From positions 38,176-102,175 of the IMG/VR virus record IMGVR_UViG_3300050026_000388: a DNA stretch of 64,000 nucleotides; one strand, given 5' to 3'. The stretch is from a virus. A program made the position numbers and the translations under genes. Below the pieces are notes generated by a model that worked only from the letters and a program-made list of their open reading frames with translations, was not told the DNA's origin and did not search any database. Shown here piece by piece: positions 19,591-46,106 of the stretch; within the stretch, counting starts at the first letter, position 1; every line of letters begins with the position of its first letter.

Positions 19591-19639
19591 GCGCGCGGTG
19601 TAATTGCGCACTCAATACAAAACTATAGGAGTAAAAAAC

Positions 19640-23015: not shown

Positions 23016-23024
23016 GCGGCAATC

Positions 23025-24198: not shown

Positions 24199-24209
24199 AC
24201 GGCTAGAGA

Positions 24210-24557
24210 ATGAAGGTTATCATAATGGATAAAGAAAAAGCTAAAGAGTGCAGATGCAACGGAGAAATCAAATGCAGCACCCATCTTGCTAATAAACTCG
24301 ACGGCGAACCGTTCTGCGCTAACGGCCCCGCAAAGGCCAAAACAATCGTAGAAGGCGGATGCAACTGCCAAGGTTGCCCGATTCATAAGGATTTCGCAGG
24401 CGTACAGTTCTGTATGGGCAACGAGGTAACGGAAGTCCGCAAAAGCACAGAGGAAACGGTTATAGATTTAACACCCGCTGGAACTGTTGCGAACGCGAAC
24501 CCCAAAGTAATTGATTTAACTAACGAGAATTTAAACTATAAACAGGAGAATAGATAA
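24210..24557 (+). CDS. DUF2769-like Cys-rich metal-binding protein
   Basis: CxC..C...FCxxG...GCxCxxCPI...FC spacing recalled from DUF2769. Confidence 0.6.
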   Translation: MKVIIMDKEKAKECRCNGEIKCSTHLANKLDGEPFCANGPAKAKTIVEGGCNCQGCPIHKDFAGVQFCMGNEVTEVRKSTEETVIDLTPAGTVANANPKVIDLTNENLNYKQENR

Positions 24558-25045
24558 TGTCTTCAGGAAGTCACGTATGGTCAAAAGGGCTACAGCTCAT
24601 CACAGATGGTAACACCGCGGGTAGCCCGGCATTTGCAAGTTGGAGAAGCATCGCGGCAGGCACGTACACGGGTTCATGGCGCTGTGCCCTCGGGACGGCA
24701 GTAGGAACGTATACCTCGTCCCAGTTGCTTTCGGCATGTACCGAAATAACAGGAACGAACTATGCGCAATACGGCGCAGGTCCTATGGCAACGAACAGCG
24801 TTGCGATTGACGGCACGCTGGCCACACATGTTGAATATGTCAGTTCAGGCAGCCCACAATGGACAAGCGCATCGTTCACCGCGGATTATGCAATTATAAT
24901 CGCGTCATTGGGGACGACATCAAGTCCAGTGCTGTGCAATTTCGACTTTGCCGGCGATAAAACCGTAACAGCAGGCACGTTCACGTTAACATTCGGAACG
25001 GACAGCGTAACGGCTAACAGCGTTTTCAACCTCGTAATATCGTAG
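24557..25045 (+). CDS. Fibre subunit-like virion protein (family B, copy 1)
   Basis: EITGTNY...WTSASF...SSPVLCNFDFAGDKTVTAGTFTLTF. Confidence 0.7.
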   Translation: MSSGSHVWSKGLQLITDGNTAGSPAFASWRSIAAGTYTGSWRCALGTAVGTYTSSQLLSACTEITGTNYAQYGAGPMATNSVAIDGTLATHVEYVSSGSPQWTSASFTADYAIIIASLGTTSSPVLCNFDFAGDKTVTAGTFTLTFGTDSVTANSVFNLVIS

Positions 25046-25160
25046 GTAGGGGTAGCGATGCCCCATCTATACATTTTTCCTACGTATAGGGATAGTTTAG
25101 CTGGCGGCATCGTAAGTATCACAGGAATAAAATGACGGTAGACGTAGACGGCAGTAGACA

Positions 25161-28100
25161 ATGACTGGTGTTACCACCTACCAGGGGTCATTTACTACAC
25201 CTGCTAGTGGAACAACTACGGTTAGTACCGTCGGTTTCCAACCCAATGCTATTATCTTTTGGGTCAGCGGCGCGTGCGGCACGACTAACGATACGTGGAC
25301 AACGACCGGTATAGAGAGTAGCACTGGATTTGCGGCCTTTGATGGCACAAACTATTATAATGCTACTATCACATACATGGCAAAATACGCCACGTCCGGT
25401 GGCGAAACGTGCGGTCTAAATCAAGACGCCACAAACTGTTTTAATGTATATAGTACCGCAGGGGCGCAATTAGTAGCTGGCCACGTAAGCAGCGTTTCGA
25501 GCAGCGGTTTTGTTATCACGTACGGCGCGGCTGCCGCAAACTATGTAATTCACTACCTCTGCATCGGCGGCGATGTCGATAAGGCGTGTATTACTACCAT
25601 GGCGATGGATACGTCGGCTACGTCGCCGCAGACGTATCAACAGTTCACACTGCCCAACAGCAATTCATGGACTCCTTCGGCGGTAATGTTCCTTACAACT
25701 ACAAGCAGCACTACTGGTTTTGCTTATGGCACCTCATCAGCCTATTATGGCGTCACGGTGTTGGGTGCTATGGATGCTGCAGGAAACCAAAATAGTGTAT
25801 CGGCGTGGACTCACGGTGAGACATCGGCTAGCGCTACAACCACATGGCGCTCTATGTCAAACGCTTATGCACTTTCTTCAAATTTTGGAGCTACCGATTC
25901 GTACGCGATAGACGCGTACTTGTCGTATAACGCGGTGGGCGCGGGTTCTTTTACGATGAACAAGGGGGGTTCTAACTACGCTAGCATATTTGCCGGCGCT
26001 ATCACTTATGCACTATGTTTATACTCTTCAACCGCAAACGAAATCTTATGCGGAACGTGGACAAGCGCGAACAGTACCACTGAAACTGTTACCACCGGCG
26101 TAACTACCGTCCAAGGTGCGTTATTTTTCACAGATAGTGATACCTCCTTTGAAGGCACTACTGACTCACGACTCACCATTGGTGCAACTGATGGTACAAA
26201 CAATGGTTGTATCGCACAAACCGACCTTAACAATAAAACGATGAACACTGGTGCAACTGCTGAGTCTATAATGGAGACAGCGAAGTGCATCTTAATTGCA
26301 AACGCGAATAATACTACAACATCAACCGCGACAGCAACGTTTAGCGGCGCCGGTATAGCTATGGCGTGGTCGGTTGGGGTTGCTGACAAGATTTGTTATA
26401 TTGCGTTTGGGCGGTCAAGTAACGCTACCATAACTTTATCCGGTCTTATTGCGCGAGCAGATGTTGTATCTGGATTATCTATGGGTGCTACTACCCTCAC
26501 CTGCCTACTATCACCACTAAGCGCAACGGCAAACATTGTAACACCGCCCTTTGTCCACGGGCATTCAATGCGCATATTTAACATGGTCAGCTTCAGTGGA
26601 AGTGATTATACGTCCCTCTATGATTCTACTGCCGTACCTTATTGTATAGCAAACGGGTGGGAAATTGAACTATCACTTCCAGGCAGCGATGCGGTTGATT
26701 ACTTCACCGACCCCGCACACACTGCGCGGTATATATCCGTCATGCAGTCCATCATGGACCAAGGAATCCCTGTATGGCTTGAGATTGAAAGCCTTATATT
26801 TTATGGTAACGCTACTATCACAAGTCCCGTATCATATTATGAAACAAATTATGGCGTTGCTCTCGCATCCTTTGAAGCGTTAGGTCCGCTCTTTAAAGGA
26901 TACGCATTCGAAGGCGGCTTTGATTATGCGATAACGTGGCTCAGGGAAAACATCAGCCCCGGGAGAAAGCTTCTCCAACACTGGTTACCTGGGTATTATC
27001 TAGCCTATGGTACCGGGGTAGACCCAGAATGGACGAACACCGCTGACGGGACGCAAGCACCCCATGACGCAGCGTGGCGCGTTTCGATGGTTGATGAGAT
27101 TTCATGGGAATGGTATCAGGCAGATTGGGCGGATTCAACTATCTCATTTAAGGCATGGCTAGACACTGTAGCACCAAATATGCCATTTGGGGTACTCACT
27201 GGATATTTAGTGGGCGGTGGTTATTGGATGAACCCAGATACCCACAGCGTTGCTTCTGGTTATGCCAATCAAGCGAGCCTTTCGGCTGCGCAAATCCAAG
27301 AACTGGTAAGCTATTGGGCGCGTTCTATTGTTACATTGCTAGGCCCGTTTGATAGCATCATTTGTGACCCTGGCGGGGATACCGCCGCAACCGCGTGCGC
27401 ATGGTTGCAGCAACAGCAATTTTTGACCCCAGTAACGCCAGTATATGACGATGACGGGGTGGATATTACTGCGTGTGGCGTTGAATATGTAGGGGACTCA
27501 TTCCCAGTATCAGGCACGACCATCACCAATGTAGGAACCGCTGGAAGCGCATACAACGCAACCGCGGCGGGTGTAAACTGTTATGATGTGGCGCCAAGCG
27601 GTGCTCAAATGTGGACACCCGTATCTAGTACTAATATGCTTGAAATTGTTTCTGGCGCGTACGTGGATAACCTTGATGAACTCACAATGGAGTTTGCAAT
27701 ACGGTATAATGGGTACAATGGGGTTAATGGAAATAGTGCGCTCTGGGCAAAAGCACAGACATATCAGGCGTGGACGATACTGATAGGCGATACGACCCCT
27801 GCCGGAAACACGGTCATCCACGTTACGAGGGGTACGGAGAGCTCAGGCACAGAACATTGGGAAACCACTAACTCGGTTGGAATGGTGGTTGGGAATTATT
27901 ATCTTATACAAATCTCATGGGCGTGCAGCAGCGGCGCATGGGGCAATGCACCAGTTGTACACGTAAACGATGTCAATTATCCTATGACACACGCTGCATC
28001 GGGAACGGGTACCTGGGCGATGGACTATGGGGCAACATCATCTAACAATGCATGCCTTGGGAACACTATCTCTTACGATAAGTACAGCCCAAACAGCCTT

Positions 28101-28235
28101 TTACTCTTCAGGTTACATAGCATCGCCCTTTCTCCTGAACAACTCACGGCGAACTATAACGCGAGCAAGTGGCGCTATGCATTTGGAGCCACCCACACGA
28201 TACTTACCCTTGCAATTACGGAGAACTCAGCATGA
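25161..28235 (+). CDS. Large appendage protein: shared N-domain, putative glycoside-hydrolase-like domain, LamG/ConA-like domain
   Basis: N-domain shared with 34107 and 42783; middle domain shared with 32751; C-terminal ELTMEFAI...FRLHSIALSPEQLTANY LamG-like pattern. Confidence 0.7.
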   Translation: MTGVTTYQGSFTTPASGTTTVSTVGFQPNAIIFWVSGACGTTNDTWTTTGIESSTGFAAFDGTNYYNATITYMAKYATSGGETCGLNQDATNCFNVYSTAGAQLVAGHVSSVSSSGFVITYGAAAANYVIHYLCIGGDVDKACITTMAMDTSATSPQTYQQFTLPNSNSWTPSAVMFLTTTSSTTGFAYGTSSAYYGVTVLGAMDAAGNQNSVSAWTHGETSASATTTWRSMSNAYALSSNFGATDSYAIDAYLSYNAVGAGSFTMNKGGSNYASIFAGAITYALCLYSSTANEILCGTWTSANSTTETVTTGVTTVQGALFFTDSDTSFEGTTDSRLTIGATDGTNNGCIAQTDLNNKTMNTGATAESIMETAKCILIANANNTTTSTATATFSGAGIAMAWSVGVADKICYIAFGRSSNATITLSGLIARADVVSGLSMGATTLTCLLSPLSATANIVTPPFVHGHSMRIFNMVSFSGSDYTSLYDSTAVPYCIANGWEIELSLPGSDAVDYFTDPAHTARYISVMQSIMDQGIPVWLEIESLIFYGNATITSPVSYYETNYGVALASFEALGPLFKGYAFEGGFDYAITWLRENISPGRKLLQHWLPGYYLAYGTGVDPEWTNTADGTQAPHDAAWRVSMVDEISWEWYQADWADSTISFKAWLDTVAPNMPFGVLTGYLVGGGYWMNPDTHSVASGYANQASLSAAQIQELVSYWARSIVTLLGPFDSIICDPGGDTAATACAWLQQQQFLTPVTPVYDDDGVDITACGVEYVGDSFPVSGTTITNVGTAGSAYNATAAGVNCYDVAPSGAQMWTPVSSTNMLEIVSGAYVDNLDELTMEFAIRYNGYNGVNGNSALWAKAQTYQAWTILIGDTTPAGNTVIHVTRGTESSGTEHWETTNSVGMVVGNYYLIQISWACSSGAWGNAPVVHVNDVNYPMTHAASGTGTWAMDYGATSSNNACLGNTISYDKYSPNSLLLFRLHSIALSPEQLTANYNASKWRYAFGATHTILTLAITENSA

Positions 28236-28260
28236 AGTGGGAACTTAGGAGAGAAAGAAG

Positions 28261-28365
28261 ATGGGGAAAGATGAGGAGCGACAAGACGTAGTAATTCACG
28301 CCCCGACAGCACAAGCGGGTGTAAAAGACCCTAAAAGTCGAAGGCAGAAACTGAAAGATAAATAA
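28261..28365 (+). CDS. 34-aa micro-ORF
   Basis: AGGAG RBS; MGKDEERQDVVIHAPTAQAGVKDPKSRRQKLKDK; stop abuts ATG 28366. Confidence 0.55.
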   Translation: MGKDEERQDVVIHAPTAQAGVKDPKSRRQKLKDK

Positions 28366-28824
28366 ATGGCAATAACATCATACTGGTTTGGACTCGCGCA
28401 AGCGCATTCGTGGGGTGGGGTAACTGCTGGAGAAACGCAGTATTTCATAGACTACCTTTCCGATACGGTAAACGTGATGCTCACCACGAACGCCGTCACA
28501 CCGGCGCAAGCCACATGGGAGTTCCAAAGCAGTGCCACTAATGAAGTTGCGGCGAGCGGAACGTATGCGGCCGGCGGCGCGACACTTGCAGCTAAAACCC
28601 TTACCTACAACGCGAGCACGAACGCATTGATGTTTGATGCCAATGATGTTTCATGGAGTGGAACAATAACGGCACGGTATGCGATTATCTATAAAGTGGG
28701 GGGGTCTGCTTCGACATCGCCATTAATGGGCTTCGTTGACTTTGGAGCAGATTATGCGTGCATATTGGGGACGTTTAATATTGTATGGGCCCCCTCTGGA
28801 TTGTTTACGATGACACCATCGTGA
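28366..28824 (+). CDS. Fibre subunit-like virion protein (family B, copy 2)
   Basis: IDYLSDTVNVML...YAAGGATL...TSPLMGFVDFG...GTFNIVWAPSGLF. Confidence 0.75.
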   Translation: MAITSYWFGLAQAHSWGGVTAGETQYFIDYLSDTVNVMLTTNAVTPAQATWEFQSSATNEVAASGTYAAGGATLAAKTLTYNASTNALMFDANDVSWSGTITARYAIIYKVGGSASTSPLMGFVDFGADYACILGTFNIVWAPSGLFTMTPS

Positions 28825-28831
28825 GGACTAA

Positions 28832-29311
28832 ATGACTGTACACGCATATTGGTATGGCCTTGCACTGGCTCACGCATGGGGCGGGGTCAACGCAGGAGAT
28901 ACGCAGTACTTCATAGATTACCTATCTGACCCGATTAAGGTGATGCTCTGTACCGCATCATATACGCCAAGCCAAGATACGCACGCGTTTAAATCAGACG
29001 TAACGGGTGAAGTTACTGGGGCGGGGTACACCGCACGCGGTGCTACGCTTTCAAGCAAGACACTCGGATACACCTCAGCAACAAAAGTCCTCAAGTTTGC
29101 AGACGCGGCAACTCTTGTATGGAGTGGGGCCGTTGCAAGCAGCGGCAGTCCTGCGGCGTATGCGGTTATCTACAAAGACACCGGAACCGATTCGACATCA
29201 CCATTGATGGGCTATGTTGATTTTAGTGGCGCTACCGCATATTCGAATAGCACAGGTACGTTTACAATAACATGGTCGTCAAGTGGAATATTTACGATAA
29301 CATTAGGATAA
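28832..29311 (+). CDS. Fibre subunit-like virion protein (family B, copy 3)
   Basis: Close tandem paralogue of copy 2 (WGGV.AG.TQYFIDYLSD). Confidence 0.75.
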   Translation: MTVHAYWYGLALAHAWGGVNAGDTQYFIDYLSDPIKVMLCTASYTPSQDTHAFKSDVTGEVTGAGYTARGATLSSKTLGYTSATKVLKFADAATLVWSGAVASSGSPAAYAVIYKDTGTDSTSPLMGYVDFSGATAYSNSTGTFTITWSSSGIFTITLG

Positions 29312-29316
29312 AATAG

Positions 29317-30720
29317 ATGACTGCACACAACGGAACCGTAACTTCGCCAGTCGCCCCGTGTCCCGCGGCCGCCCCAGCCCCGACAGCGTCGGTGAATACA
29401 CTCACCCCCCTTAGCGTCGCTGCAAACACGACACAACTCAGCATTCAAATCGTTGATAATATACTTTCGGTAGGGGGGTTCGCTACTGCCGCGATTGGCA
29501 CTGTAAGTATCGCAACAGCATACGGCCCAGTATCTGCGGCTGCTAATACAACTACCGCGAGCGTATATATAACAGCTCCTGCGCAAAACGTATCGGTTGC
29601 TGCATTAAGCGTCGCCACACCTACAATAACACCGGCCGTTCGAATTGATAATACACCCTCACCACCATCATTAGTAACAACTGTCACATTAGGAACTATC
29701 AGCGCAGAAGGCGATTGTACAGCAACATTTAGCGTATTATCCGCCGCTACACAGGCTACTGTTATTAGCATAACTCGTATAGACCAAAACCTATCATTCA
29801 CCACCATAACAAATGTAGCGGCAAGCCCCACACTAGCGGTGAGCGGCGATTACGCACCCACAACTATAGTAATAACCACAACTGCAAATGCCACCACACT
29901 ATCAATAACCACCACATATGCTACTACACTCACCACGTTAAGCGATGCCTCAAACGTCGGCGCATTAACACTGGTTAATTCGTGTTCTGTGGCTCTAGCA
30001 TCAGTATCGGCGAGTGCGAACGCGGGGGCCGTGGTTACACCAATCAGTTATGCGGCCACCCTAAACTCATTAAGTGGGGCCGCTAATGCGTTAACTGTAA
30101 GTATACTGGGAGACTATACCCCCACTTTGTTTACTATCACAGGGGTCGTTCATGCATATCCTTTAGGGGTTGAAACTGATATAGATTCATTAATAATTAC
30201 GACCCCTCTAGCAGGAATGGCTAATGTCGTCGAAACAGACATGGCCTACGATAGTTTAATACGTTTAAGTTCATTATACCAGTTAGTTCAAGCTGTAAAG
30301 TTAACGGTTGCATGTGGATATACCCCAACCCTAAATTCATTGAGTGAAGCGGCGAACATTGGGGTAGTAACTATCTCGCATGGCATGTTGGTAACACTAA
30401 CCACATTAAGCGAGTTGGTTCATACTGGTGTTCTTACTTCGGCAAGTAGCTGGGCCGCAACCTTGACCTCACTGCGCGAAACGGTTAACAGCGTTATTTT
30501 TGCTATAAGCGGCGTAGTTTCCGGTATCGTCTCAAAATCATATCTCCGCGGCGTGGTAACTGAAAACGAAGTAGTGGTTGGATTCACTGATGGCGCAATA
30601 GTAATCAGTGGGCAACATGAGCGGTGTCCAGTTCTATTGTCCAACATCATACCGTTACAGAATATTAAACTTATCGGGATGCGACAACCGAAAAATGAGA
30701 TTGATGTAGTATTATCATAA
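29317..30720 (+). CDS. Thr/Ser/Ala/Val-rich protein of ~21-23-aa degenerate repeats
   Basis: Recurrent GDY/DQN...TL.SLS.AAN units, also found in 34107. Confidence 0.7.
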   Translation: MTAHNGTVTSPVAPCPAAAPAPTASVNTLTPLSVAANTTQLSIQIVDNILSVGGFATAAIGTVSIATAYGPVSAAANTTTASVYITAPAQNVSVAALSVATPTITPAVRIDNTPSPPSLVTTVTLGTISAEGDCTATFSVLSAATQATVISITRIDQNLSFTTITNVAASPTLAVSGDYAPTTIVITTTANATTLSITTTYATTLTTLSDASNVGALTLVNSCSVALASVSASANAGAVVTPISYAATLNSLSGAANALTVSILGDYTPTLFTITGVVHAYPLGVETDIDSLIITTPLAGMANVVETDMAYDSLIRLSSLYQLVQAVKLTVACGYTPTLNSLSEAANIGVVTISHGMLVTLTTLSELVHTGVLTSASSWAATLTSLRETVNSVIFAISGVVSGIVSKSYLRGVVTENEVVVGFTDGAIVISGQHERCPVLLSNIIPLQNIKLIGMRQPKNEIDVVLS

Positions 30721-30737
30721 TAAAAAGGGGAAAATAA

Positions 30738-31229
30738 ATGACCGACTTTCAAATGTATCGTGGGGTTGACAAAGATATTTACATTTCTGTTTATACTAAT
30801 ACTACCCCACCCGTTCCAGCTGCTCTCGACGAAGCAAGTGCGAAGTGGGTTGCCGTGAAAGAACCGATAACGGGCGCTATCGCCGCAACACTCACAAAAG
30901 ACACAGAGACGGGCGGTATTGAGATTACAACCGAGCCCGGCTCGAGTTCACCAGTTAATAATACCCTCCTTATCCATATTCTCGACGCGGATGGGACCTC
31001 GTTAGATATAGGCACATACGCCCATGAGGCACAAATAACTCTCGCTGGTGAGATTGAAGTAGTGTACCCCCCAGTAGGTACTACCGCTTCATTCTCCGTT
31101 GACCTTTCACTCGTTGCGGCTGCCGGCGGCCTGCAGGTAAAAGAACCGCCAACGATATTGAGCACTGCGCCTGCGACGGCTACATCGGGTACTGGTTGGC
31201 ATCGCAAGTATAAGGATGGTAAAAAGTGA
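30738..31229 (+). CDS. BppU-N-like fibre adaptor (family E, copy 1)
   Basis: MTDFQMYRG...GGIEIT...HILDAD..L..GTYAHEAQI. Confidence 0.65.
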   Translation: MTDFQMYRGVDKDIYISVYTNTTPPVPAALDEASAKWVAVKEPITGAIAATLTKDTETGGIEITTEPGSSSPVNNTLLIHILDADGTSLDIGTYAHEAQITLAGEIEVVYPPVGTTASFSVDLSLVAAAGGLQVKEPPTILSTAPATATSGTGWHRKYKDGKK

Positions 31230-31612
31230 GCGACAAACCGTTTCGTATCTTTGGTGAGGATGATGCAAAGGAACTCAAAGACCAAGTGAGCGCGGAGCCC
31301 GAGCTTTGGCGCGTTTACGCTGAGGCGTTGCCATGTAAGGTTAAAATTGAAAATGAGTGCTTCCCCCGCCCGCACGAGGTTTATAACTGCACTTCGTGCA
31401 AACACGGAGGGCCAAATATTAGCGCTGATAAAGAGAGATTTTACAACAGATGTACCAATCCTACGGCGGGAACGTTTGGTATGTGGTGTGAGGGTGGTAA
31501 GTGGAACGATACGGGCTGTCCTTGGTTCTTTAGCAAAATTGAGCGGCCAAGAAAAGGCTACATGCCCGGTATGGAATCCGGACCATACATAGGAGAATTT
31601 TGGAGAAAATGA
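31226..31612 (+). CDS. Cys-rich hypothetical protein (family A, copy 2)
   Basis: CTSCKH...C...NDTGCPW. Confidence 0.6.
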   Translation: MSDKPFRIFGEDDAKELKDQVSAEPELWRVYAEALPCKVKIENECFPRPHEVYNCTSCKHGGPNISADKERFYNRCTNPTAGTFGMWCEGGKWNDTGCPWFFSKIERPRKGYMPGMESGPYIGEFWRK

Positions 31613-31716
31613 CTGAAGTAATAAACAGTTCCGCGGGAGTCCTTCCAGTAACGGTAGCCATCGTGAATGGCGACTCAAAAGAAGAAGGTAAAGAGGTAAA
31701 AGAAAATGACTGCTGA
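31609..31716 (+). CDS. 35-aa micro-ORF
   Basis: ATGA-coupled start; MTEVINSSAGVLPVTVAIVNGDSKEEGKEVKENDC. Confidence 0.5.
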   Translation: MTEVINSSAGVLPVTVAIVNGDSKEEGKEVKENDC

Positions 31717-32206
31717 TACAAGTGCATTATTTGATAAGGCGATGGTCAGTATGGGTTCCGCGCTTACGACATGGACATCCGGCACCGCAGCTACAAAATG
31801 GGTGTTGTTAGGAAGTAGCACCCTTTTAACAAACTGCGGAACAAATAAAACGGGCTGGTCGACGTATGCAGACATCACGACCGACACGCATGAGATTGCA
31901 CACGGGACGTACGCAAGCTATATAACAGGTGGCCAAGTGGCACCGTCACTGACCGCACCAGCACTCGCATCGAGTGTGTGCTACTTTGATATGGGCGATA
32001 TATCGTGGACGAGCGCTACGATGGCAGGTGTAAGAGTTGGGATTATCAAGGGCGATAGTGCAACGATAACGACTGCAACGGGCCCTTTAATAGGCTATTG
32101 GGCGTTTGGTGCTGACCAGTCGGTTACTGCGGGAACGTTCACGGTAGTGTGGGCAAGTTCACCACAAAACGGATGCTTTGCAATAACAATATCTGGCGCA
32201 ACGTAA
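31706..32206 (+). CDS. Fibre subunit-like virion protein (family B, copy 4)
   Basis: HEI...YITGG...FDMGDISWTSAT...PLIGYWAFGADQSVTAGTFTVVW. Confidence 0.75.
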   Translation: MTADTSALFDKAMVSMGSALTTWTSGTAATKWVLLGSSTLLTNCGTNKTGWSTYADITTDTHEIAHGTYASYITGGQVAPSLTAPALASSVCYFDMGDISWTSATMAGVRVGIIKGDSATITTATGPLIGYWAFGADQSVTAGTFTVVWASSPQNGCFAITISGAT

Positions 32207-32212
32207 CTTAAA

Positions 32213-32737
32213 ATGAAAGTATTCCTCCCGTTTACGGAGATTCAACCGGGGACTCTCACGTCTCTCACACCGTATGAGTACGTGCCAATAGCTATGGAAG
32301 ATAACTTCAGTTATCCAAGATATTTCAAAGGAAGGTGGCGCGAAGGTGAATCGTTTATTAATTGCGAACATGACACGATATTCCACAAAGGTGCGATTGA
32401 AGAGCTAATAAGGTGTCCTGAGATATGGTGTGCGTTTGGGGTTAGTTACGCTGACAAATACGCCCAAGGCACCGCTCCAAACCTCTCGCTTGTTAAATTT
32501 ACCAGCGAGTTCATCAAAAAATTCCCTGATTTGTGGGAGCAGATGGAAGACGTTGAATATGTTGCGAAAGCGTGGGGGGTCAAACCTTCAAATTTCGAGA
32601 CGTTTAAACAGAATGTGTGGTCTTCTCCGTGGACCCTGTGCGATGCGTGGGTGTTCATGGCGGCAACAACCGAAGGAATTGTGTGTCACCAACACTATCC
32701 TGACGTTGTTAATGCAAATCCGAGGTATCCGTCTTAA
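32213..32737 (+). CDS. Minimal GT-A-fold glycosyltransferase-like protein
   Basis: FINCEHD (DxD-like), WTLCD, C-terminal HQH; no TM segment. Confidence 0.5.
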   Translation: MKVFLPFTEIQPGTLTSLTPYEYVPIAMEDNFSYPRYFKGRWREGESFINCEHDTIFHKGAIEELIRCPEIWCAFGVSYADKYAQGTAPNLSLVKFTSEFIKKFPDLWEQMEDVEYVAKAWGVKPSNFETFKQNVWSSPWTLCDAWVFMAATTEGIVCHQHYPDVVNANPRYPS

Positions 32738-32750
32738 CGGGGGCTAAAAT

Positions 32751-34004: not shown

Positions 34005-34106
34005 CGAGGCTCAGTTCATCGAAAAGCGTTACCATAAAGGTAGCAGTTAAAAAGAGATGCCTATTACGACGGGCAATCCAGAAGTTAAGTTCTAAATGAA
34101 TCTAAA

Positions 34107-38288: not shown

Positions 38289-38443
38289 AAGAGAAAGCAC
38301 TGAAAAGAAGAGACGTAAACCTTACCCTTACACCAGCAAGCGTGGGCGCTGACCATACGAGGGTAGCGGGAGAACCGCAGAGCCTACAGGCGCGCATAGC
38401 ACGTAAGTTCCCAAAGGGATTCCGACAAAAACGGAAGCGATAA
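38285..38443 (+). CDS. 52-aa basic micro-ORF
   Basis: ATGA-coupled to 34107 stop; MKEKALKRRDVNLTLTPASVGA...RQKRKR; fills the gap exactly. Confidence 0.55.
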   Translation: MKEKALKRRDVNLTLTPASVGADHTRVAGEPQSLQARIARKFPKGFRQKRKR

Positions 38444-38444
38444 C

Positions 38445-38798
38445 ATGACTGATTTTAACGATATAGAATTCAGCGCAGGGGAAGACATCAGCGTAAATGT
38501 GCCTATCACTAAAGACGGCACCGCGCTTACCATCACCGATGCGACGGTTACGTGGAAAGCGTATCACACACTCACGGGCGTTGTCATGATAAAAGATAAC
38601 GCAGACATTGGCGGCATCACGATAAACAAGGATGGAGAATCGGTGACGCTTGCCTTCGCGAAAGAAGACACTGAAGATTTGATTCCACTTACCTATTATC
38701 ACGAGGTCCGCATACTTCTAGAAGAGGCCGAGAACGTCTTAGTTCCACAGGGCCGGCTTAAACTTAACAGGAGTATCACGCTGATGGAGGAGCCATGA
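38445..38798 (+). CDS. BppU-N-like fibre adaptor (family E, copy 2)
   Basis: MTDFNDIEFSAGED...GGITI...EDTEDL...YYHEVRI...QGRL. Confidence 0.7.
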   Translation: MTDFNDIEFSAGEDISVNVPITKDGTALTITDATVTWKAYHTLTGVVMIKDNADIGGITINKDGESVTLAFAKEDTEDLIPLTYYHEVRILLEEAENVLVPQGRLKLNRSITLMEEP

Positions 38799-39445
38799 GG
38801 AAAGCGCTAACCGTAATCACACCGCCAGCAGCGTACCCTATCACGCGCGACGAAGCGGCAGAGTGGGTTCACTTGGACCCGTCGAACGTATCAGAAGATG
38901 TGGTGCTCGACATGCTCATCGCTACATCCACAGAGCAGATTGAAAAATACCTTGGCAGGGCGCTTATCACTCAAGTTCTCGAGATGGAGTTTATGCCGCA
39001 TCCACCAGAAATCCTCCCGATGCGGATTTACCTGTGGCGCGCAGCGCCGTTGCAGAGTATTCAGTGGGTTAAATCAATAGAACAAGATGGCACCGAGCAC
39101 ACCCAAGCAACGAATATTTATGATACAGATATATGGGCGATTCCCGGTAGGATTCAGCTTCTTATGGGCTATTGGTGGGATTACTTCGTTTTCGGGAAGT
39201 ATAGAATTAGGTACACGTGCGGCTATGGCGATGATGCCAGCGATGTGCCGGCGGCGATAAAGACGGCGATATTGATGTATGTTTCGCAACTTTATCAGAG
39301 TAGAGAGGAGATGGATTACTCAATCAGTCCGCAAGTTGAGGTGTTATTGCAAGATTATAAGCTCGATACATTCGACTTTACAGATTCTGGTGCTGTCAAG
39401 TGGTCGCCCTTTGGAAGCTCAAGCGTAGGATATGGGTATCGGTGA
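38795..39445 (+). CDS. Head-tail adaptor (HK97 gp6 / phiE125 gp8-like)
   Basis: PPAAYPITRDEA, YLGRALITQ, IRYTCGYG...VPAAIKTAILMYVSQLYQSRE. Confidence 0.92.
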   Translation: MRKALTVITPPAAYPITRDEAAEWVHLDPSNVSEDVVLDMLIATSTEQIEKYLGRALITQVLEMEFMPHPPEILPMRIYLWRAAPLQSIQWVKSIEQDGTEHTQATNIYDTDIWAIPGRIQLLMGYWWDYFVFGKYRIRYTCGYGDDASDVPAAIKTAILMYVSQLYQSREEMDYSISPQVEVLLQDYKLDTFDFTDSGAVKWSPFGSSSVGYGYR

Positions 39446-39450
39446 GTAGT

Positions 39451-40029
39451 GTGCCATATAAAGACCCTGAAAAAGAACGGCAGTACCAAAAAAGGTACCG
39501 AGGAGAGCATGGGGCCACGCGGCGAGAATATGAACGCAAATACCGCCTAGAAAAACCAGAAAAGCGCCGCGCGACTGAACGCAAATCGTATAACAAAAAC
39601 CGCGAACGCAAACTCGCGCAAAATCATAGATGGCACAAAGACAATCTTGAATATCATCAAGAGCTGATGCAGAAGTGGAACGCCGACCACCCAGAAGAAC
39701 GTAAGATATACAGACACAACCGCCGAGCCCGCATAAAAGGCAACGGTGGCATACTTCCACCAAACGCGCTACAAATATTGTTCACGCAGCAAAGCGGACT
39801 TTGCTATCTTTGTAGCGAACCATTCCCTAAGCTAAACGACCCCGCAAGTATAGAACATAAAATCCCTATTTCGCGGGGTGGTAGTAATAATATTTCCAAT
39901 ATTGGATTGGCGCATCTGAGCTGCAACCTAAGAAAGCACACAAAGACGCATATTGAATTTTTAAAACAAATAGAAGAGGACGATTATATGAAAATAACAA
40001 AGGAGATTTCAGAAACATGGTCGACGTAG
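39451..40029 (+). CDS. Free-standing HNH homing endonuclease
   Basis: GTG start giving MPYKDPEK as in 16994; IEHKIPISRGGSNNISNIGLAHLSCNLRK. Confidence 0.92.
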   Translation: MPYKDPEKERQYQKRYRGEHGATRREYERKYRLEKPEKRRATERKSYNKNRERKLAQNHRWHKDNLEYHQELMQKWNADHPEERKIYRHNRRARIKGNGGILPPNALQILFTQQSGLCYLCSEPFPKLNDPASIEHKIPISRGGSNNISNIGLAHLSCNLRKHTKTHIEFLKQIEEDDYMKITKEISETWST

Positions 40030-40460
40030 CGCATATGTACGATAAAGCTGCGCTTCACTTAGCGCAGAATGATTGGGCGTGGAGGGCCGCCACACAGACG
40101 GTTTATATGGCTCTTTATACAGGTAGCTATTCACCTTCACAGGCCGCGGACGAGACGTATTCCGGTATCAGCGGCGAACTTACGAGCGCTAACGGCTACC
40201 AGCAGGGCGGCGTGAAGATGACGCTTAACGACCCTGTAGTCACGGGGGCCGACCCTTCGGCGTATACTAAACTATACAGTAGTGACGTTTCATGGGCGGC
40301 CGCGTCGTTTACCGGCGTTCAGACGATTGTCATCTACAACAACGTAGGTTCAAAGTACTTAATCGGTTTCATAGAATACGGAACCGCTAAATCAGCAGGC
40401 GGCGGCACGTTTACGGTGCAATGCCCCGCAACAGGGTGGTTTGATTTAGCGACGCCGTAG
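40017..40460 (+). CDS. Fibre subunit-like virion protein (family B, copy 5)
   Basis: YMALYTGSYSPSQ..GELTSANGYQQGG...DVSWAAASF...LIGFIEYG...GGTFTV. Confidence 0.75.
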   Translation: MVDVAHMYDKAALHLAQNDWAWRAATQTVYMALYTGSYSPSQAADETYSGISGELTSANGYQQGGVKMTLNDPVVTGADPSAYTKLYSSDVSWAAASFTGVQTIVIYNNVGSKYLIGFIEYGTAKSAGGGTFTVQCPATGWFDLATP

Positions 40461-40488
40461 GCGGTATAAAAACGATAAAACGGCGGAG

Positions 40489-42018
40489 GTGATAAACACG
40501 GCGTTAGTTGGGACTTGGATGACAGTAAGCGCTACTACTACTACCCCATCAGAGGGTGTAGCGATAACTATTACACTGACACTTAGGAGAGCTGACAATA
40601 ACGCCGCGATTTCTGGTAGGGTTCTCAATCTATACAATGGTGCGGGGACGCTTGTAGCACAGTACCCCTCAAATTCAGCAGGACAAATCGCTTGGTCTGT
40701 CACATATCACAGCGCACCATATACCGACGGTTTCACGGGAAGGTTTTATGCTGACTCACTGTTTGGCGGGACTAATAGCTCAACACTTTATATATATGTT
40801 ACCGCAACGACGTGGTGTTGGCTCACTGCTGGTGCGTATTCTCCAACACAAGGCGACACAGTTACTTTTGCCGCAGGGCTTCAAAAAACTGATGGTGGTG
40901 TAGGCGTCCCAGGTCAAACACTTCGGATTTACCAGTTTAATCCTTCAGGTAGTACACTAGTTGCCTCAGGCACAACAAATGGTGCTGGGGTTATTGCGTG
41001 GTCGCATACGTTCCCTGATACCGGCACATTCTATTATTACTCAGCATTCGCCGCAGAAAATCAGTATCAAGCTTGTAAGAGCACCCCTGATGTTACGATT
41101 AATGTCCAACCATCCGTAATACCACCTCCACCCCCAACACAACACACAACTTCACTTTCGCTTACCGCCAGCGATGCAGCACCTCAGTTATTCGGAAACG
41201 TTACATTTACTGCAATACTCACGAGCAGTGGCGCGGGTGTAAATAATGAAACTATTAACTTCTATTATTACGACCCCCAACAGGTACAGCACACGATGGA
41301 TACAACTGCGACATCAGTTAACGGCACCGCTGTATTTACCACACAATTCACTGACCCCCTATTGATGCAATGGTACGCGAGCTTCGGCGGCGACCTTACA
41401 GACCCCGACAACACATATTCGGCATCTACAAGTAGTATGGTGCTGGTAAACGCCGGCGGCCCTGTTATCACTATTAACCCATCTACAACGGTTACCATAA
41501 CCGCAAACGTGGCAACTCTAATAATAAACTACCGCGGTATTACCTCTACCGTAGAATGTGAAGCAAACGTAGCCGTTGTTGCTGCAGATATTATAATTGC
41601 AGGAGTTACAGCAACCGAAATTTTAACTGCAAATAACGCGATTACCGGCGGCGGGGCTAGTGGGTATCCGTCTAACATGAGGATTACCGCTGGCGTGCCT
41701 CGGATAGTTTATGACGTAGTAGTCACCGATTGGTGGTCGGCAGCAGTGGTTACCATAACTGAAAATGTGCCATTTGCTGGGACGATAACTGATATCATAC
41801 TCGTCGGTGTTGAGGCGGACGTTATCATAACTGAGAACGTTCCCGTTGCGCGCGGGGTTCCCTCCATCGTTGCTACTATAATGGAAATATTCGTTGAGGG
41901 GGAGTACGAAACGAGCAAAACATGCAACGGGGCATATAGCGCTGGGGTAGCAAGTGATGGCGACTATATCGTTGCAAAGGCATCATCTAATGCCGATTAT
42001 TCACCAGACGGAGATTAA
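40489..42018 (+). CDS. Tandem Ig-like domain protein with C-terminal repeats
   Basis: Three ~95-aa beta-rich repeats (VTFTA.L...G...T...G) followed by VTITAN/ITENVP units. Confidence 0.65.
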   Translation: MINTALVGTWMTVSATTTTPSEGVAITITLTLRRADNNAAISGRVLNLYNGAGTLVAQYPSNSAGQIAWSVTYHSAPYTDGFTGRFYADSLFGGTNSSTLYIYVTATTWCWLTAGAYSPTQGDTVTFAAGLQKTDGGVGVPGQTLRIYQFNPSGSTLVASGTTNGAGVIAWSHTFPDTGTFYYYSAFAAENQYQACKSTPDVTINVQPSVIPPPPPTQHTTSLSLTASDAAPQLFGNVTFTAILTSSGAGVNNETINFYYYDPQQVQHTMDTTATSVNGTAVFTTQFTDPLLMQWYASFGGDLTDPDNTYSASTSSMVLVNAGGPVITINPSTTVTITANVATLIINYRGITSTVECEANVAVVAADIIIAGVTATEILTANNAITGGGASGYPSNMRITAGVPRIVYDVVVTDWWSAAVVTITENVPFAGTITDIILVGVEADVIITENVPVARGVPSIVATIMEIFVEGEYETSKTCNGAYSAGVASDGDYIVAKASSNADYSPDGD

Positions 42019-42019
42019 G

Positions 42020-42367
42020 ATGGCTATTCGTGAAGATTATACAGTCGACAGGGCATCGAAATTTGATATTGAATTAACCACAACGATAGAAGGCGTACCC
42101 CTTTCGCTTTCTAGCGCGGTAATTACGTTTAAGGCGGCGATAGATTATGACACGCCGCCAATCATAGATATGTCATCAGCCGACCCTGACGCGATTGAGA
42201 TAACCAACAGCGACAACGGCCAGTTTACGGTTCACCTTTCTGAAGATGATACGAATATCACCATCAGCTTCCCGACGAATTATGTGTACGATATACGGGT
42301 CAGCTACGAGAACGAATCTGCGATTGTGCAGTACGGTACATTAACGATACTGCCGCGATTGACGTGA
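42020..42367 (+). CDS. BppU-N-like fibre adaptor (family E, copy 3)
   Basis: GVPLSLSSAVITF...IEIT...FTVHLSEDDT...YDIRVSY...YGTLTI. Confidence 0.7.
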   Translation: MAIREDYTVDRASKFDIELTTTIEGVPLSLSSAVITFKAAIDYDTPPIIDMSSADPDAIEITNSDNGQFTVHLSEDDTNITISFPTNYVYDIRVSYENESAIVQYGTLTILPRLT

Positions 42368-42379
42368 GAACCTGAGAGA

Positions 42380-42769
42380 ATGAACGTAACTACATCAGAT
42401 GCAGCAACCGGCGAACATGCGAGGCTTTTATCCCCCGTGCGGACGGCGGTAAATCAGGGGGGGAAACTCGACATTTACGCTGTAGTCAAGAAAGCAGGAG
42501 TCCCACTTTCTTTAGCTGATGCGGTAATAACGTTTGCGGCTGGTGAGAATTATGGCTGCGCGCCGCTGATAACCAAAACGAGCGCGGGTGGTGGAATTGA
42601 GATAACCGATATTGCCGGGGGTAGATTCACGATACACCTGCTGAAAAATGATACTGATATTAATTTTGATTATCCCACTGAGCTTAATTACGACGTGCGC
42701 GTTTCGTATCCCGATGAGTCTGCGATTGTGCTTTACGGTACTATTAGGATTACACCACGACTGACGTAG
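42380..42769 (+). CDS. BppU-N-like fibre adaptor (family E, copy 4)
   Basis: Close tandem paralogue of copy 3; both end PRLT. Confidence 0.7.
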   Translation: MNVTTSDAATGEHARLLSPVRTAVNQGGKLDIYAVVKKAGVPLSLADAVITFAAGENYGCAPLITKTSAGGGIEITDIAGGRFTIHLLKNDTDINFDYPTELNYDVRVSYPDESAIVLYGTIRITPRLT

Positions 42770-42782
42770 GAGAAAGAAAGAA

Positions 42783-45700
42783 ATGACGTTTTATCAGAAA
42801 GTTGGTAGTTTCACAGCGCCTGCGGGGGCGGGTTCTCAGGCAACCACGGGCCTCGGCTTTACGCCCGTCGCTATAATTTTTTGGTTTGGTGCTGCTTCAC
42901 TCTCAAGTGGTGGATGGGTTGGTGGGAGTAGCGGCTACACCGGAGGCAACCAAAGCGGTATTGGTCTTGTTACGGCATCGGGGAGCGGCGCGGTTGGATA
43001 TATCGAATATAGCAACGGAACCGCGGACATATATACCGCTCATGCAACAACGGCTATTTACTCTTACTCTGTTGCCGGAACCCTATCGGCGTCACTTACT
43101 TCTCTTGATAGTAGTGGCTTTACGCTATATTGGATGAGTACGATTTCCGGCGTTACAATCCACTATCTTGCATTAGGCGGAACCGACATAACCGGCGCGA
43201 TGGTTAAAGAGTGGACTGCCAAAGGTTCAACAGGTTCGCAATCAATCACCGGCGTCGGCTTTAAACCGTCGTTAGTGATTAATATTGGCACATCAGATAC
43301 GGTCGCACCCCCGCACGTGAGCGCGTCAACGAATTTTTGGCCCCCGTTAGACACGGGTGCGATGGATGGTAGTGGCAACCAATGGGCGCAGTCTGACCGT
43401 TTTTACACTAATTGTTGCAGGTATGAACTAACCAATGCGTGCATCGTCGGAATAAATCAAACGACCGGAGTGGACTACCAAGCAGCATATACCTCAATGG
43501 ATTCTGACGGCTTTACTATAAATTGGTCAACATGCAACGGAGCACCGTATTTTTATAGTCTCTGCTTAAGTGGTTGTGCATGTCAGGTCGGAAATTGGGA
43601 TAAATCAACATCGGCAGCAAGTGATACCGTATCCCTTGGTATTACGCCTCAAGCTGTTTTTGTAGTGTCGGCTTGTAATATACCTACCTCTAGCTACATA
43701 AATGATGAAAGGCGCATGTTTGGTGCAAGCGACGGGACAAACAACCGCGTAGTAACAACTACGTATCAAGGAACGTCTGGTGATTTGACGTATCAGTACT
43801 GGGATACCACAAACTCAATATGTATCCCCGGCTCGGTAAACTCGACGGCGACTGCCGGAACGATTGGCAGTTTCGGGTCAAGTCAATTTGTCGCAAGTTA
43901 CAGCACGCACGATAATATAGCGACTGAGATATGCTATGTTGCGTTCGGCTCTTCAGCCGGCGGCTACACTGGAGCGCTTACATCACTACCAGTCACGGCC
44001 GCGGACACGGACAGCGTAACCCAAACAACGGTAGAAATTGATTATCCTGCTTACCTCTCAACGTTACAGGTCGCTGCCAATACACCGTATATTGCGATAC
44101 AGATTAATTGCACCGTTACACCCAACCCAGTTACTGCATCTGCGAATATCGCTTTGATAGGTACCACTATCACAGGAACCACCCAAACTATTACACCCTC
44201 TTCATTAAATGTCACCACAGTATCACCCCCTGTATCATTCCCATATCTAGGATTAACGGGAATCGCTACGTTCACCGCAAATATCGCCGATATAAGCATC
44301 ACCGTGGATGTTGAGCAAACAGCGACCCTTAATGCAGTAGAAAACATTCCCACAGTTGTCAACATTATCCATGTTATAGGAGAATCCATAATCTCGTCCT
44401 GCGGCACTGGCGGCCCGATGTTATGGTCAAACGCCGCATCGTGGGATGGGGGTGTGATGCCTGATGACGAGTACGGCATAAACATCCTCTCTGGGGATGT
44501 GATGTATTTTGACGTTGACCAGTCCGAATTTGCAGTAGGACTTACTTCAGTGTGGATAGATGGAGAACTCCGGTTCCCCACGCAGAGCCCCCTTACTGGA
44601 ACCACGATTACACCACTAAAAGTTAACCCACACATGGTACTAGCTGATGGAGTACAGATACTAGGCGCCGGCGGGTTCTACTGCGGCAACTCAGCAACAG
44701 ACCCGATACGGCCACCGGATGAAGGCAGCTCGAGCCGCGCGACAATCACTAGTATGGGGGGTACCGATTATCTTATAGATATCATCGAAACGGGATTCTT
44801 CGGTTGGTATGACACAACAACGTACTCCTTCTTTGCCGGTGCGTGTGCGGGGTCCGAGACAACAATCCCCCTTACCAGTCAGTTATTACTGCAGGACGGC
44901 GACGAGATTGTAATAGGAAATACCCTGACTCATGGGGTGAGTTCTGACGTAGAAATGGAAAAATATCCTGTGGCCGCATACACCGCACAACCCCCGACCA
45001 TAACACTCCAATATGGACTCTCATACTCTCATGATGTAGGTGACTGCGTCGCGCGCGCTAGCAGACCGATTAAGATAACGGGTGTAAACGCGGGGGTGAT
45101 AGCACCAACCACGCGTTGTATCGGCTTTGAGGGCGTCTGTACTGAAGGAATCATACCATTACCTCAATACCAAGACACCCTTTCGATACGTGGCTGCACC
45201 GTGTTCGATACCCCTCTCATTTACTATACAGCCCCAACCGCAAACGGCATGATAACCGTTGAAAATAGCACGGTTATCGGCACACCAAGCGGGGGCGCCC
45301 TAGTGGGTGAATGTGGTGTTCCTTTGAAGCTCAACAACTGCGTGGTGCTCGGTTGCCCAACCGGAATCGCATCAACTGATGGCATTTCGGCAACGGGCAT
45401 AGTGATGCAGAACACCAATATTGGGATGTATGAAATCACGAACAGCGCACTCAAAAATTGTACAATAAGCGGGAACCATTACGGCACAGCAAACGGCGCG
45501 GGTAATGTGTATATCTCTAGTACATTTGCGCATAATGACGTTGACTTCTACAGCGCCGCTTCTGCAACGCTCTACGATACGACACTTCAGAGCATGATTC
45601 CGACGAGTTACCTCCACGCCGCAGTAGTTCCCGCATGGTCATGCATTAAAGACTATGGTACGGGTGAAGACCAGCGCGTGTGGGGTGCCGGCGGCTACGG

Positions 45701-46106
45701 CGGGATACAGAATACTGTACTATATAATGGTAATAAGACGTGGAAGTTCCAGATAATGCAGGCGGATGAACCGCTGTTTTGGGATACCCCCTTCCTGTCC
45801 TCAGCCGGTAAGCAGGTAACCGTGGCTATCGCGGCAATGAAAGAGTTTCAAGGCGGGGTGGTTATGCTTCAGATTATCGACCCCGCACATGACCCGCTAT
45901 TCGGCTTCGGGGATATGCCGCTTGATGCAGTAACACTCGATGATACGATTTCAATATGGCGCACCCTTTCAGTTTCCTTTATGAGCACGTTTATGCAGCC
46001 GCTAGTCGCGAGGGTGTTGGTGCAGAACTCAACAGGTACCGGAAACGCCTACGCTTACATCACCGCTATGGAAGAGACGCTTAACTGTGGGGGGCTGTAC
46101 CCATGA
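42783..46106 (+). CDS. Large appendage protein: shared N-domain, short repeats, G8-like domain, right-handed beta-helix
   Basis: GFTPVAIIFW and GASDGTNN N-domain; WSNAASWDGGVMP...IDGELRF (G8-like); IRGCTV/VENSTV/LNNCVV/LKNCTI beta-helix repeats. Confidence 0.7.
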   Translation: MTFYQKVGSFTAPAGAGSQATTGLGFTPVAIIFWFGAASLSSGGWVGGSSGYTGGNQSGIGLVTASGSGAVGYIEYSNGTADIYTAHATTAIYSYSVAGTLSASLTSLDSSGFTLYWMSTISGVTIHYLALGGTDITGAMVKEWTAKGSTGSQSITGVGFKPSLVINIGTSDTVAPPHVSASTNFWPPLDTGAMDGSGNQWAQSDRFYTNCCRYELTNACIVGINQTTGVDYQAAYTSMDSDGFTINWSTCNGAPYFYSLCLSGCACQVGNWDKSTSAASDTVSLGITPQAVFVVSACNIPTSSYINDERRMFGASDGTNNRVVTTTYQGTSGDLTYQYWDTTNSICIPGSVNSTATAGTIGSFGSSQFVASYSTHDNIATEICYVAFGSSAGGYTGALTSLPVTAADTDSVTQTTVEIDYPAYLSTLQVAANTPYIAIQINCTVTPNPVTASANIALIGTTITGTTQTITPSSLNVTTVSPPVSFPYLGLTGIATFTANIADISITVDVEQTATLNAVENIPTVVNIIHVIGESIISSCGTGGPMLWSNAASWDGGVMPDDEYGINILSGDVMYFDVDQSEFAVGLTSVWIDGELRFPTQSPLTGTTITPLKVNPHMVLADGVQILGAGGFYCGNSATDPIRPPDEGSSSRATITSMGGTDYLIDIIETGFFGWYDTTTYSFFAGACAGSETTIPLTSQLLLQDGDEIVIGNTLTHGVSSDVEMEKYPVAAYTAQPPTITLQYGLSYSHDVGDCVARASRPIKITGVNAGVIAPTTRCIGFEGVCTEGIIPLPQYQDTLSIRGCTVFDTPLIYYTAPTANGMITVENSTVIGTPSGGALVGECGVPLKLNNCVVLGCPTGIASTDGISATGIVMQNTNIGMYEITNSALKNCTISGNHYGTANGAGNVYISSTFAHNDVDFYSAASATLYDTTLQSMIPTSYLHAAVVPAWSCIKDYGTGEDQRVWGAGGYGGIQNTVLYNGNKTWKFQIMQADEPLFWDTPFLSSAGKQVTVAIAAMKEFQGGVVMLQIIDPAHDPLFGFGDMPLDAVTLDDTISIWRTLSVSFMSTFMQPLVARVLVQNSTGTGNAYAYITAMEETLNCGGLYP

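Follow-up and report, generated by a model that had tools for sequence, protein, structure and literature searches.

Several tailed phages carry chain-like fibers in which dimers of a small, gp80-type protein wrap a rope "like beads on a string," as described for Bas63, GP4, and Sf14 (PMC12609058). In Bas63 and Sf14 the rope is an N-terminal extension of the Ig-like neck collar protein and holds two dimers; in GP4 it is a separate protein that holds five dimers and sits on the Ig-like adaptor gp77 (PMC12609058). In A1002, 11 dimers built from two adjacent bead paralogs occupy ~268 rope residues over ~300 Å through augmented β-sheets (PMC13730344), and the chains attach to the tail in GP4, VP1, and A1002 (PMC13730344). 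Two other appendages bear on the comparison: the Bxb1 tail wing, in which gp31 is a structural part of the virion that joins gp30 and gp33 (PMC12646305), and the gp82-gp81-gp80 fiber of cyanophage A-1(L), in which gp81 trimers are joined head to tail by N-terminal hairpins, with no rope or ruler, on a pentadecameric neck anchor (PMC10966104). Here, we used a computational approach to study a 22-kb block (positions 24557 to 46106) within the head-neck gene module of a tailed virus, IMG/VR record IMGVR_UViG_3300050026_000388. The window that we analyzed is 64,000 nucleotides long and corresponds to bases 38,176 to 102,175 of that 102,175-bp record, whose completeness is estimated at 93%; all genes of the locus lie on its + strand. 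The original prediction was that four types of parts recur here, namely small paralogs (B), repeat proteins (D), Ig-like adaptors (E), and glycan-acting tips, and this picture is largely real: B and E hold throughout, D holds for two proteins, and the tips amount to leads. On balance, the evidence tips toward the locus encoding several rope-type chain-like ("beads-on-a-rope") virion fibers.

The predicted set of five B paralogs of ~150 to 165 residues is present in full, with all five reading frames connected by BLASTP: B1 (24557 to 25045, 162 residues), B2 (28366 to 28824, 152 residues), B3 (28832 to 29311, 159 residues), B4 (31706 to 32206, 166 residues), and B5 (40017 to 40460, 147 residues). 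B2 and B3 are 53% identical, and the remaining pairs are linked at E values of 1e-9 to 4e-3; B1 is linked in this way to B4, B5, and B2 and takes its place in the family alignment, as B4 does among the BLASTP links. Three of the five match phrog_644 (B2, E = 2e-24; B3, E = 4e-33; B5, E = 4e-15). When the B-family profile was compared with the PDB, it matched Bxb1 gp31, the "tail wing arm" of entry 9d93 (E = 1.8e-9; local hidden Markov model [HMM], E = 1e-16). B3 was chosen for modeling, and its AlphaFold2 (AF2) model (predicted local distance difference test [pLDDT] score, 88) is a stand-alone β-sandwich of ~150 residues. Exhaustive structural alignment of this model by VIA against 48,161 chains returned eight chains with a Z of ≥5, all of them virion parts of phages or of an archaeal virus. 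The best was a KP1 baseplate chain (Z = 12.2), followed by Bxb1 gp31 (Z = 9.9; root mean square deviation, 2.0; 101 of 105 residues), GP4 chain 8jou_a (Z = 8.5; 127 of 136 residues), which is gp80 and is present as ten chains in that structure, an HFTV1 tail chain (Z = 6.7), and a 108-residue Sf14 neck chain (Z = 6.4); the others were phiKZ gp139, a 7-7-1 tail-fiber chain, and a phi812 baseplate chain. The modeled B3 is therefore a small protein in the ~110- to 170-residue range with the fold of the Fiber I and whisker beads, and, judged from sequence and predicted fold, B is homologous to Bxb1 gp31.

Homologs of B are found as stand-alone proteins of ~140 to 160 residues in many phages and prophages. 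They include Caulobacter phiCbK-like phages, phages of Gordonia, Rhodococcus, Tsukamurella, and Mycobacterium, and the satellite MiniFlayer, together with 38 loci in genomes of Actinomycetota, Chloroflexota, Pseudomonadota, and others; one further homolog sits on a small contig of a Methanobacteriota metagenome-assembled genome, and the family is overwhelmingly bacterial. Most of these records carry no annotated function, and a search for B fused to a longer protein, which might have served as a Rosetta-stone link to a rope, found none. Some homologs reach ~205 to 215 residues (P0043, P0045, P0049, and P0100) because a CBM_5_12-like module is inserted in a loop in the middle of the fold; in P0045 and P0049 this insertion matches PF02839. 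A carbohydrate-binding module in that loop suggests that the surfaces of B are exposed and able to bind sugars.

The second component consists of the repeat proteins, which we examined by windowed autocorrelation. D1 (29317 to 30720) is a stand-alone candidate rope with at least 14 units of 22 residues and a C-terminal end of ~70 residues; a period of 22/44 runs through residues ~100 to 350 with autocorrelation of up to 1.27, and a repeat HMM recovers 14 units. D2 (34107 to 38288) joins a ~400-residue N-domain to a long candidate rope of ~33 units, followed by a hydrophobic segment and a C-terminal end of ~100 residues; the period of 22 spans residues ~463 to 1150, the autocorrelation rises to 3.1 (99th percentile of shuffled sequences, 0.34), and the repeat HMM finds 27 units. 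The D2 array contains six Ala/Gln-rich units of 22 to 23 residues (residues 505 to 636), visible as tandem repeats in the DNA too, and then ~27 units of 22 residues in which a DY type and a DQNL type often alternate. The repeat regions of D1 and D2 are 30% identical. Their unit consensus, D-[Y/Q]-x-[L/A]-T-[L/F]-S-S-L-S-E-T-A-N-x-x-T-[V/L]-x-[I/V]-E-G, bears an amphipathic β-strand pattern, V-x-I-x-x-D-Y-x-L-x-L, whose hydrophobic residues alternate across the border between units. The A1002 fiber works out to about 24 residues and 27 Å of rope per dimer, a value near the 22-residue unit of D1 and D2. Arrays of ~21 to 23 residues had been predicted for four proteins of the locus; they are clear in D1 and D2 and marginal in the products of 40489 and 42783, and the repeat HMM, run over all six frames, gave nothing significant outside D1 and D2. 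Between the D2 array and its last ~100 residues lies a 20-residue, Gly-rich, strongly hydrophobic segment of transmembrane-like character (37935 to 37995, residues ~1277 to 1296).

Bead and rope genes are neighbors in this locus, with a B gene directly preceding 29317, 25161, and 40489, and the same pairing recurs in distant phages. In 11 loci of cultured phages, where every annotated protein was scored for windowed periodicity, the gene directly after the B homolog scored 0.7 to 2.6 at a lag of 22, 23, 24, or 48 in nine, and nearly all other genes stayed below 0.4; of the two exceptions, MiniFlayer was ambiguous and TPA4 negative. The actinophage partners have 10 to 12 N-terminal units and then a globular C-terminal domain. 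A second, independent sample comprised 36 prophage loci; in 12 of them (33%) the downstream gene exceeded 0.7, always at lags of 22, 44, or 46, or 9 of 33 once copies of one element are dropped, compared with 6% of 282 control open reading frames, which did so at scattered lags (Mann-Whitney P = 7e-6). Together, the two sets indicate that the pairing of B with repeats of 22 to 24 residues is conserved far beyond this virus, without being universal at the sequence level. One of the cultured-phage partners, Dylan gp61 (L003:7357-7758), is a 133-residue "minor tail subunit" made of five 23-residue units only (autocorrelation, 1.34); it follows the B homolog gp60 and a D-Ala-D-Ala carboxypeptidase and would be a minimal rope.

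Two other arrangements around B homologs deserve mention. In phiCbK and MiniFlayer the homolog lies just downstream of the capsid genes, and in phiCbK (gp075-gp076, L002:6950-14357) it stands in the head block directly before a Gly-rich "lectin-like" protein of ~2,800 residues, whose repeated modules resemble, by eye, the Bxb1 gp33 "brush." phiCbK has a head filament (mentioned in PMC12796354). In a distant virus, IMGVR_UViG_3300000317_000001 (L005:8001-9505), a B homolog follows the terminase gene and is itself followed by a 250-residue protein with a DNRLRE-like N-terminal part (by eye) and a few Val/Ser-rich units, and then by a 96-residue protein that resembles GP4 gp77 by eye; this would be the same order of bead, partner, and small Ig-like protein, with a different adaptor family.

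The third component, E, has four members: E1 (30738 to 31229), which has a C-terminal tail and aligns with the others through a GGIEIT motif; E2 (38445 to 38798), which matches phrog_1084 and was modeled with AF2 (pLDDT, 85); E3 (42020 to 42367; phrog_1084, E = 4e-7); and E4 (42380 to 42769; phrog_1084, E = 6e-6), which is 50% identical to E3. The family has 1,736 representatives in a library of 1.84 billion proteins. The E2 model is an Ig-like sandwich close to the N-terminal domain of BppU: Foldseek placed the Bas63 connector chains 9mt4_G and 9mt4_H at the top, and VIA aligned the model with BppU-N (Z = 9.8 for residues 11 to 129 of 4v96_AA; Z = 8.9 for 3uh8_A), the T5 tail-tip chain 7qg9_R (Z = 9.1), the Sf14 neck chain 9c39_I (Z = 8.6), an 80alpha baseplate chain, and the R4C and P74-26 neck chains. 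The label "BppU-N-like" given to these proteins is therefore right at the level of the fold, although the BppU_N model PF10651 matches none of the four at E values of up to 1. The E profile also weakly matches the 197-residue "Structural protein" 26dk_M, an entry of unverified identity with the length of the A1002 collar gp33 (E = 8.5e-4). As for gene order, E was expected always to come directly after a repeat protein, which three of the four do, and E4 follows another E. The order B, repeat protein, E was recovered three times as predicted, with the qualification that in the second case 32213 and 32751 stand between B and D.

How this locus compares with the solved fibers depends on which feature is considered. 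GP4 Fiber I (PDB 8JOU) offers a bead of ~140 residues with a similar fold and a rope encoded apart from both bead and Ig-like adaptor. Its gene order runs from the bead gp80 through gp79 and gp78 to the Ig-like gp77 (8jou_D in the structure) and the fibers, so that the likeness consists of a bead, the gene or genes in between, and an Ig-like adaptor. GP4 is, in contrast, a Ralstonia podophage with tail attachment, one bead, one rope, and five dimers, against five beads, several ropes, and about 14 and 33 predicted units here, and its gp77 belongs to phrog_4137, an Ig-like family distinct from that of E (phrog_1084). GP4 gp79 (L004:27948-28925, minus strand) is a Gly/Ala-rich protein of 325 residues (phrog_19041) with loose quasi-repeats of ~20 to 22 residues; as the GP4 rope, for which the papers compared name no gene product, it remains a guess, with weak periodicity and no PDB entry found by sequence. 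In A1002, a Pseudomonas podophage, the bead paralogs gp40 and gp41 lie side by side at the rope, as B2 and B3 do before D1, and the rope gp39 is fused to a large structural domain (the nozzle), as in D2; on the other hand, that rope belongs to the nozzle, no regular repeat has been described in its sequence, and the fiber wraps the tail tube. The collar-whiskers of the Escherichia myophages Bas63 and Sf14 (PDB 9MT4 and 9C39) have an Ig-like collar, whose Bas63 connector chains are the best Foldseek matches of the E model, and, as a system, are located at the neck. The gene order D then E repeats the order of rope and Ig domain in the Bas63 collar protein, hinting at a split form of that protein, yet in Bas63 rope and Ig domain form one polypeptide with two dimers, whereas here they are separate genes, E is present four times, and the ropes are 7 to 16 times longer.

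The Bxb1 tail wing (gp30 base, gp31 arm, and gp33 brush; PDB 9D93) is the one solved system with a true sequence homolog of B. Unlike B, however, gp31 has 106 residues, lacks the first ~40 residues of B, and forms a short arm at the tail tip; no long repeat protein adjoins it, and its neighbor is a D-Ala-D-Ala carboxypeptidase. Neither a D-Ala-D-Ala carboxypeptidase serving as wing base nor a Gly-rich brush, partners that occur together in Bxb1 and Dylan, was found among the genes of our locus. The A-1(L) fiber, to which the locus had first been likened, is beaded, ~100 nm long, and anchored at the neck, with many copies of a small subunit and a different terminal bead. This analogy did not hold, since the mechanism of A-1(L) relies on rope-less trimers and the long repeat proteins of our virus point to the rope type; the right comparison is with GP4, A1002, and Bas63.

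A close relative, L018, has a capsid protein 68% identical to that of the window and a simpler version of the locus. There, a B4-like bead, a Cys-rich protein like that of 31226, a 1,385-residue protein that joins the N-domain to about 40 units of ~22 residues, and an E2-like protein are followed by the adaptor, a B5-like bead, an 837-residue N-domain protein with about 7 units, and the head-closure gene. B4 is 61% identical to its L018 ortholog; B5 is 66% identical to its own, which also lies directly past the adaptor gene, and the ortholog of 42783 sits directly after B. This layout defines the cassette unit as B and an N-domain/rope protein, to which E may be added. The locus in the window looks as if two cassettes had grown to about five, an HNH gene having been inserted past the adaptor.

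The original proposal that B subunits are strung along a repeat ruler tied to an Ig-like adaptor is supported in part, and by analogy it would match the architecture of GP4, A1002, Bas63, and Sf14. What speaks for the bead-on-rope idea is the fold and homology of B, the conserved adjacency of B and repeat genes, the ~24 residues per dimer in A1002, and the collar-like fold of E. We propose that each 22-residue unit would dock one B dimer by β-sheet augmentation, as in A1002, and that the rope would set the length of the fiber, at roughly 40 nm for D1, 90 nm for D2, and much less for the products of 25161, 40489, and 42783. The B paralogs may serve different ropes, and B2 and B3 may share D1 in the way that gp40 and gp41 share theirs in A1002. 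The C termini of the ropes could, on the model of the solved collars, tie into rings of E, and the enzymatic or lectin-like domains and the shared 400-residue N-domain would be tips or a second anchor. Attachment at the neck, at the level of the adaptor and head-completion proteins, is a guess from gene position. This position and the precedent of Bas63 and Sf14 speak for the neck, while the appendages of GP4, A1002, and Bxb1 are all attached to the tail.

Several observations weigh against fibers of this kind. Foldseek found no match in the PDB for the B model, whose structural hits came solely from the exhaustive VIA search, and the Z of 8.5 to gp80 is near the level that the tool calls common for unmatched models. 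B shows no detectable homology to the gp80 sequence family, with gp80 falling in phrog_240 and B in phrog_644; hhalign gave no sequence relation between the two (probability, 0.1%), and what they have in common is a short YAV...TG...LL motif noticed by eye. The D proteins have no detectable homologs, D1 has no sequence match in the PDB, and the periodicity of 40489 and 42783 is marginal (0.46 to 0.61), the only other repeat support for 42783 being a BLAST match of D2 residues 643 to 703 to its residues 395 to 455 (E = 3e-5). Among the prophage loci, no more than about one in three shows sequence-level periodicity after B. E has an Ig-like fold of a generic kind, with antibody domains scoring close behind the phage chains in Foldseek, and outside this lineage the family was seen beside B in L044 alone. 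Finally, Bxb1 gp31, the sole solved sequence homolog of B, is present as six copies in a short arm and not in a long chain.

This last point is what one would expect if the repeats formed an autonomous shaft, either a single-chain β-solenoid or a trimeric β-structured fiber, and B were a short linker to its base. Parallel β-helices typically have coils of about 22 residues; adjacent genes are expected equally for an adaptor and its fiber, and the globular domains at the ends of the actinophage proteins that follow B are like those of ordinary fibers. Yet many repeat units elsewhere hold two prolines and two glycines per 24 residues, as in Pickett gp27, a composition unusual for a solenoid core, and Dylan gp61 consists of nothing besides its five units. 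The match between unit length and the A1002 rope length per dimer and that between the fold of B and the bead of rope-type fibers likewise speak for docking, and we consider an autonomous shaft unlikely, without dismissing it. Far less credible is a role for B as a nonstructural assembly chaperone of the downstream fiber proteins that is absent from virions. Small genes beside fiber genes often encode chaperones, B genes do adjoin fiber genes, and the dearth of functional annotation among B records would fit. However, the Bxb1 gp31 homolog is built into the virion, the structural relatives of B are virion components, B lies upstream of its fiber gene whereas most fiber chaperones are encoded downstream, and the carbohydrate-binding insertions suggest an exposed binding surface.

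A different question is whether true bead-on-rope fibers might be mounted on the tail (tube, tip, or baseplate) or on the capsid instead of the neck. The chains of GP4, VP1, and A1002 on the tail and the wing of Bxb1 at the tail tip are precedents for this, BppU-N-like and p132-like Ig domains form tail rings, and gene position by itself says little about location. Against such a site, the genes lie between those for the capsid and head closure and flank the adaptor both in the window and in L018, the phiCbK and MiniFlayer homologs of B come just past the capsid genes, and E resembles neck proteins of Bas63, Sf14, R4C, and P74-26 as well. We regard a site away from the neck as possible, if on the improbable side.

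A ~400-residue N-domain is common to three large proteins of the locus, namely, large fiber protein 1 (25161 to 28235), D2, and large fiber protein 3 (42783 to 46106); that of 25161 is 48% identical to that of D2 and 26% identical to that of 42783. The domain has no match in Pfam, the PDB, or DUF7483 and no profile relation to B, and a search for related loci with it as the query found nothing. An impression by eye that it consists of three modules of ~130 residues was dropped, the internal repeats lacking statistical support. In 25161, which has no Pfam or PDB match, the N-domain is followed by about two rope-like units, a TIM-barrel-like, hydrolase-like domain (residues 469 to 740), and a C-terminal domain. 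The N-terminal part of 32751 (32751 to 34004) is 36% identical to this hydrolase-like region and forms a stand-alone version of it, with a C-terminal Ig-like domain (weak Big_3_5 match) and Atlas leads to DUF4015, GH18, and GH5 at scores below 0.9. The product of 40489 (40489 to 42018), as judged from its translation, has three tandem β-rich modules of ~100 residues, Ig-like by eye, and a Thr/Val-rich C-terminal part, with no Pfam or PHROG match, and 42783 combines its N-domain with a few rope-like units (residues ~395 to 520) and a C-terminal, β-helix-like part that weakly matches G8 (E = 0.012). The glycan-acting tip domains foreseen for this locus accordingly stand as leads, namely, the Atlas scores below 0.9 and the weak G8 match.

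The flanks of the locus were largely as anticipated. The capsid gene upstream, at 19604, is of the HK97 type (PF05065, E = 1e-46), and the head-tail adaptor around which the locus is wrapped (38795 to 39445) is gp6-like (PF05135, 26.9 bits, above the Pfam cutoff). The head-closure or completion gene that marks the downstream boundary (46103 to 46540, + strand) is weakly supported (PF05521, E = 0.057), and its L018 ortholog is 66% identical and occupies the equivalent position. Within the phage collection, the capsid proteins most similar to this one come from bacteriophages, at 35 to 41% identity, and a search of genome contigs with the capsid protein for related loci found nothing. Two paralogous HNH endonuclease genes lie within the structural module (21879 to 22454 and 39400 to 40029; 34% identity); the latter, absent at the equivalent site in L018, is probably a mobile insertion outside the fiber system. 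Also inside the locus are a 174-residue protein with no Pfam or PHROG match (32213 to 32737) and a Cys-rich protein of 128 residues (31226 to 31612), a conserved cassette partner with a 74% identical copy in L018. It is one of three small Cys-rich proteins in the module (31226 to 31612; 23731 to 24557) and could conceivably bind Zn as an assembly factor or have a structural role. Past the capsid gene, two adjacent paralogous genes (22464 to 23789; 60% identity over 58 residues; shared motif GILP.ASITKTLNAVSGED), likewise duplicated in L018, may encode capsid decoration or head-fiber proteins. In the gene at 46540 to 48069, the segments matching residues 21 to 89 and 439 to 508 are contiguous in L018:14474-14857 and L019:4541-4960, which agrees with an intein-like insertion in the window copy. 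No tRNA genes were found in the window, and the Shine-Dalgarno sites, on inspection, did not suggest that B and D are expressed differently.

The architecture proposed here is itself already known. What is new is a second sequence family of beads, one related to Bxb1 gp31; very long and regular ropes; the fusion of ropes to a shared 400-residue domain and to enzyme-like tips; and the presence of five beads and four collars in one genome. In its fullest form, which we put forward tentatively and with some doubt, a single virion may bear up to five beads-on-a-rope fibers of about 2 to 33 docking units (a few nanometers to ~90 nm), each with its own bead paralog and its own enzymatic or lectin tip; several Ig-like collar rings would hold them at the neck, and the virus would be long-tailed and possibly archaeal. 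If true, this would be, among the published descriptions compared, the first multifiber rope-type set and also the first case from a virus that is siphovirus-like or archaeal, and it would carry chain-like fibers beyond the handful of podo- and myophages in which they have been seen by cryo-electron microscopy. The phrog_644 family would become a second, widespread family of beads, with partner ropes so far annotated as "minor tail proteins." In Gordonia, Mycobacterium, Rhodococcus, and Caulobacter phiCbK-like phages, as in many prophages, genes that now go by "hypothetical" or "minor tail protein" would gain a testable function. The locus would also offer a natural series of ropes, from 2 to about 33 units, suited to asking whether the number of repeats rules the length of the fiber. 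Lastly, the growth from two to about five cassettes, with hydrolase and β-helix tips swapped, would then be a compact instance of modular evolution in host-recognition appendages.

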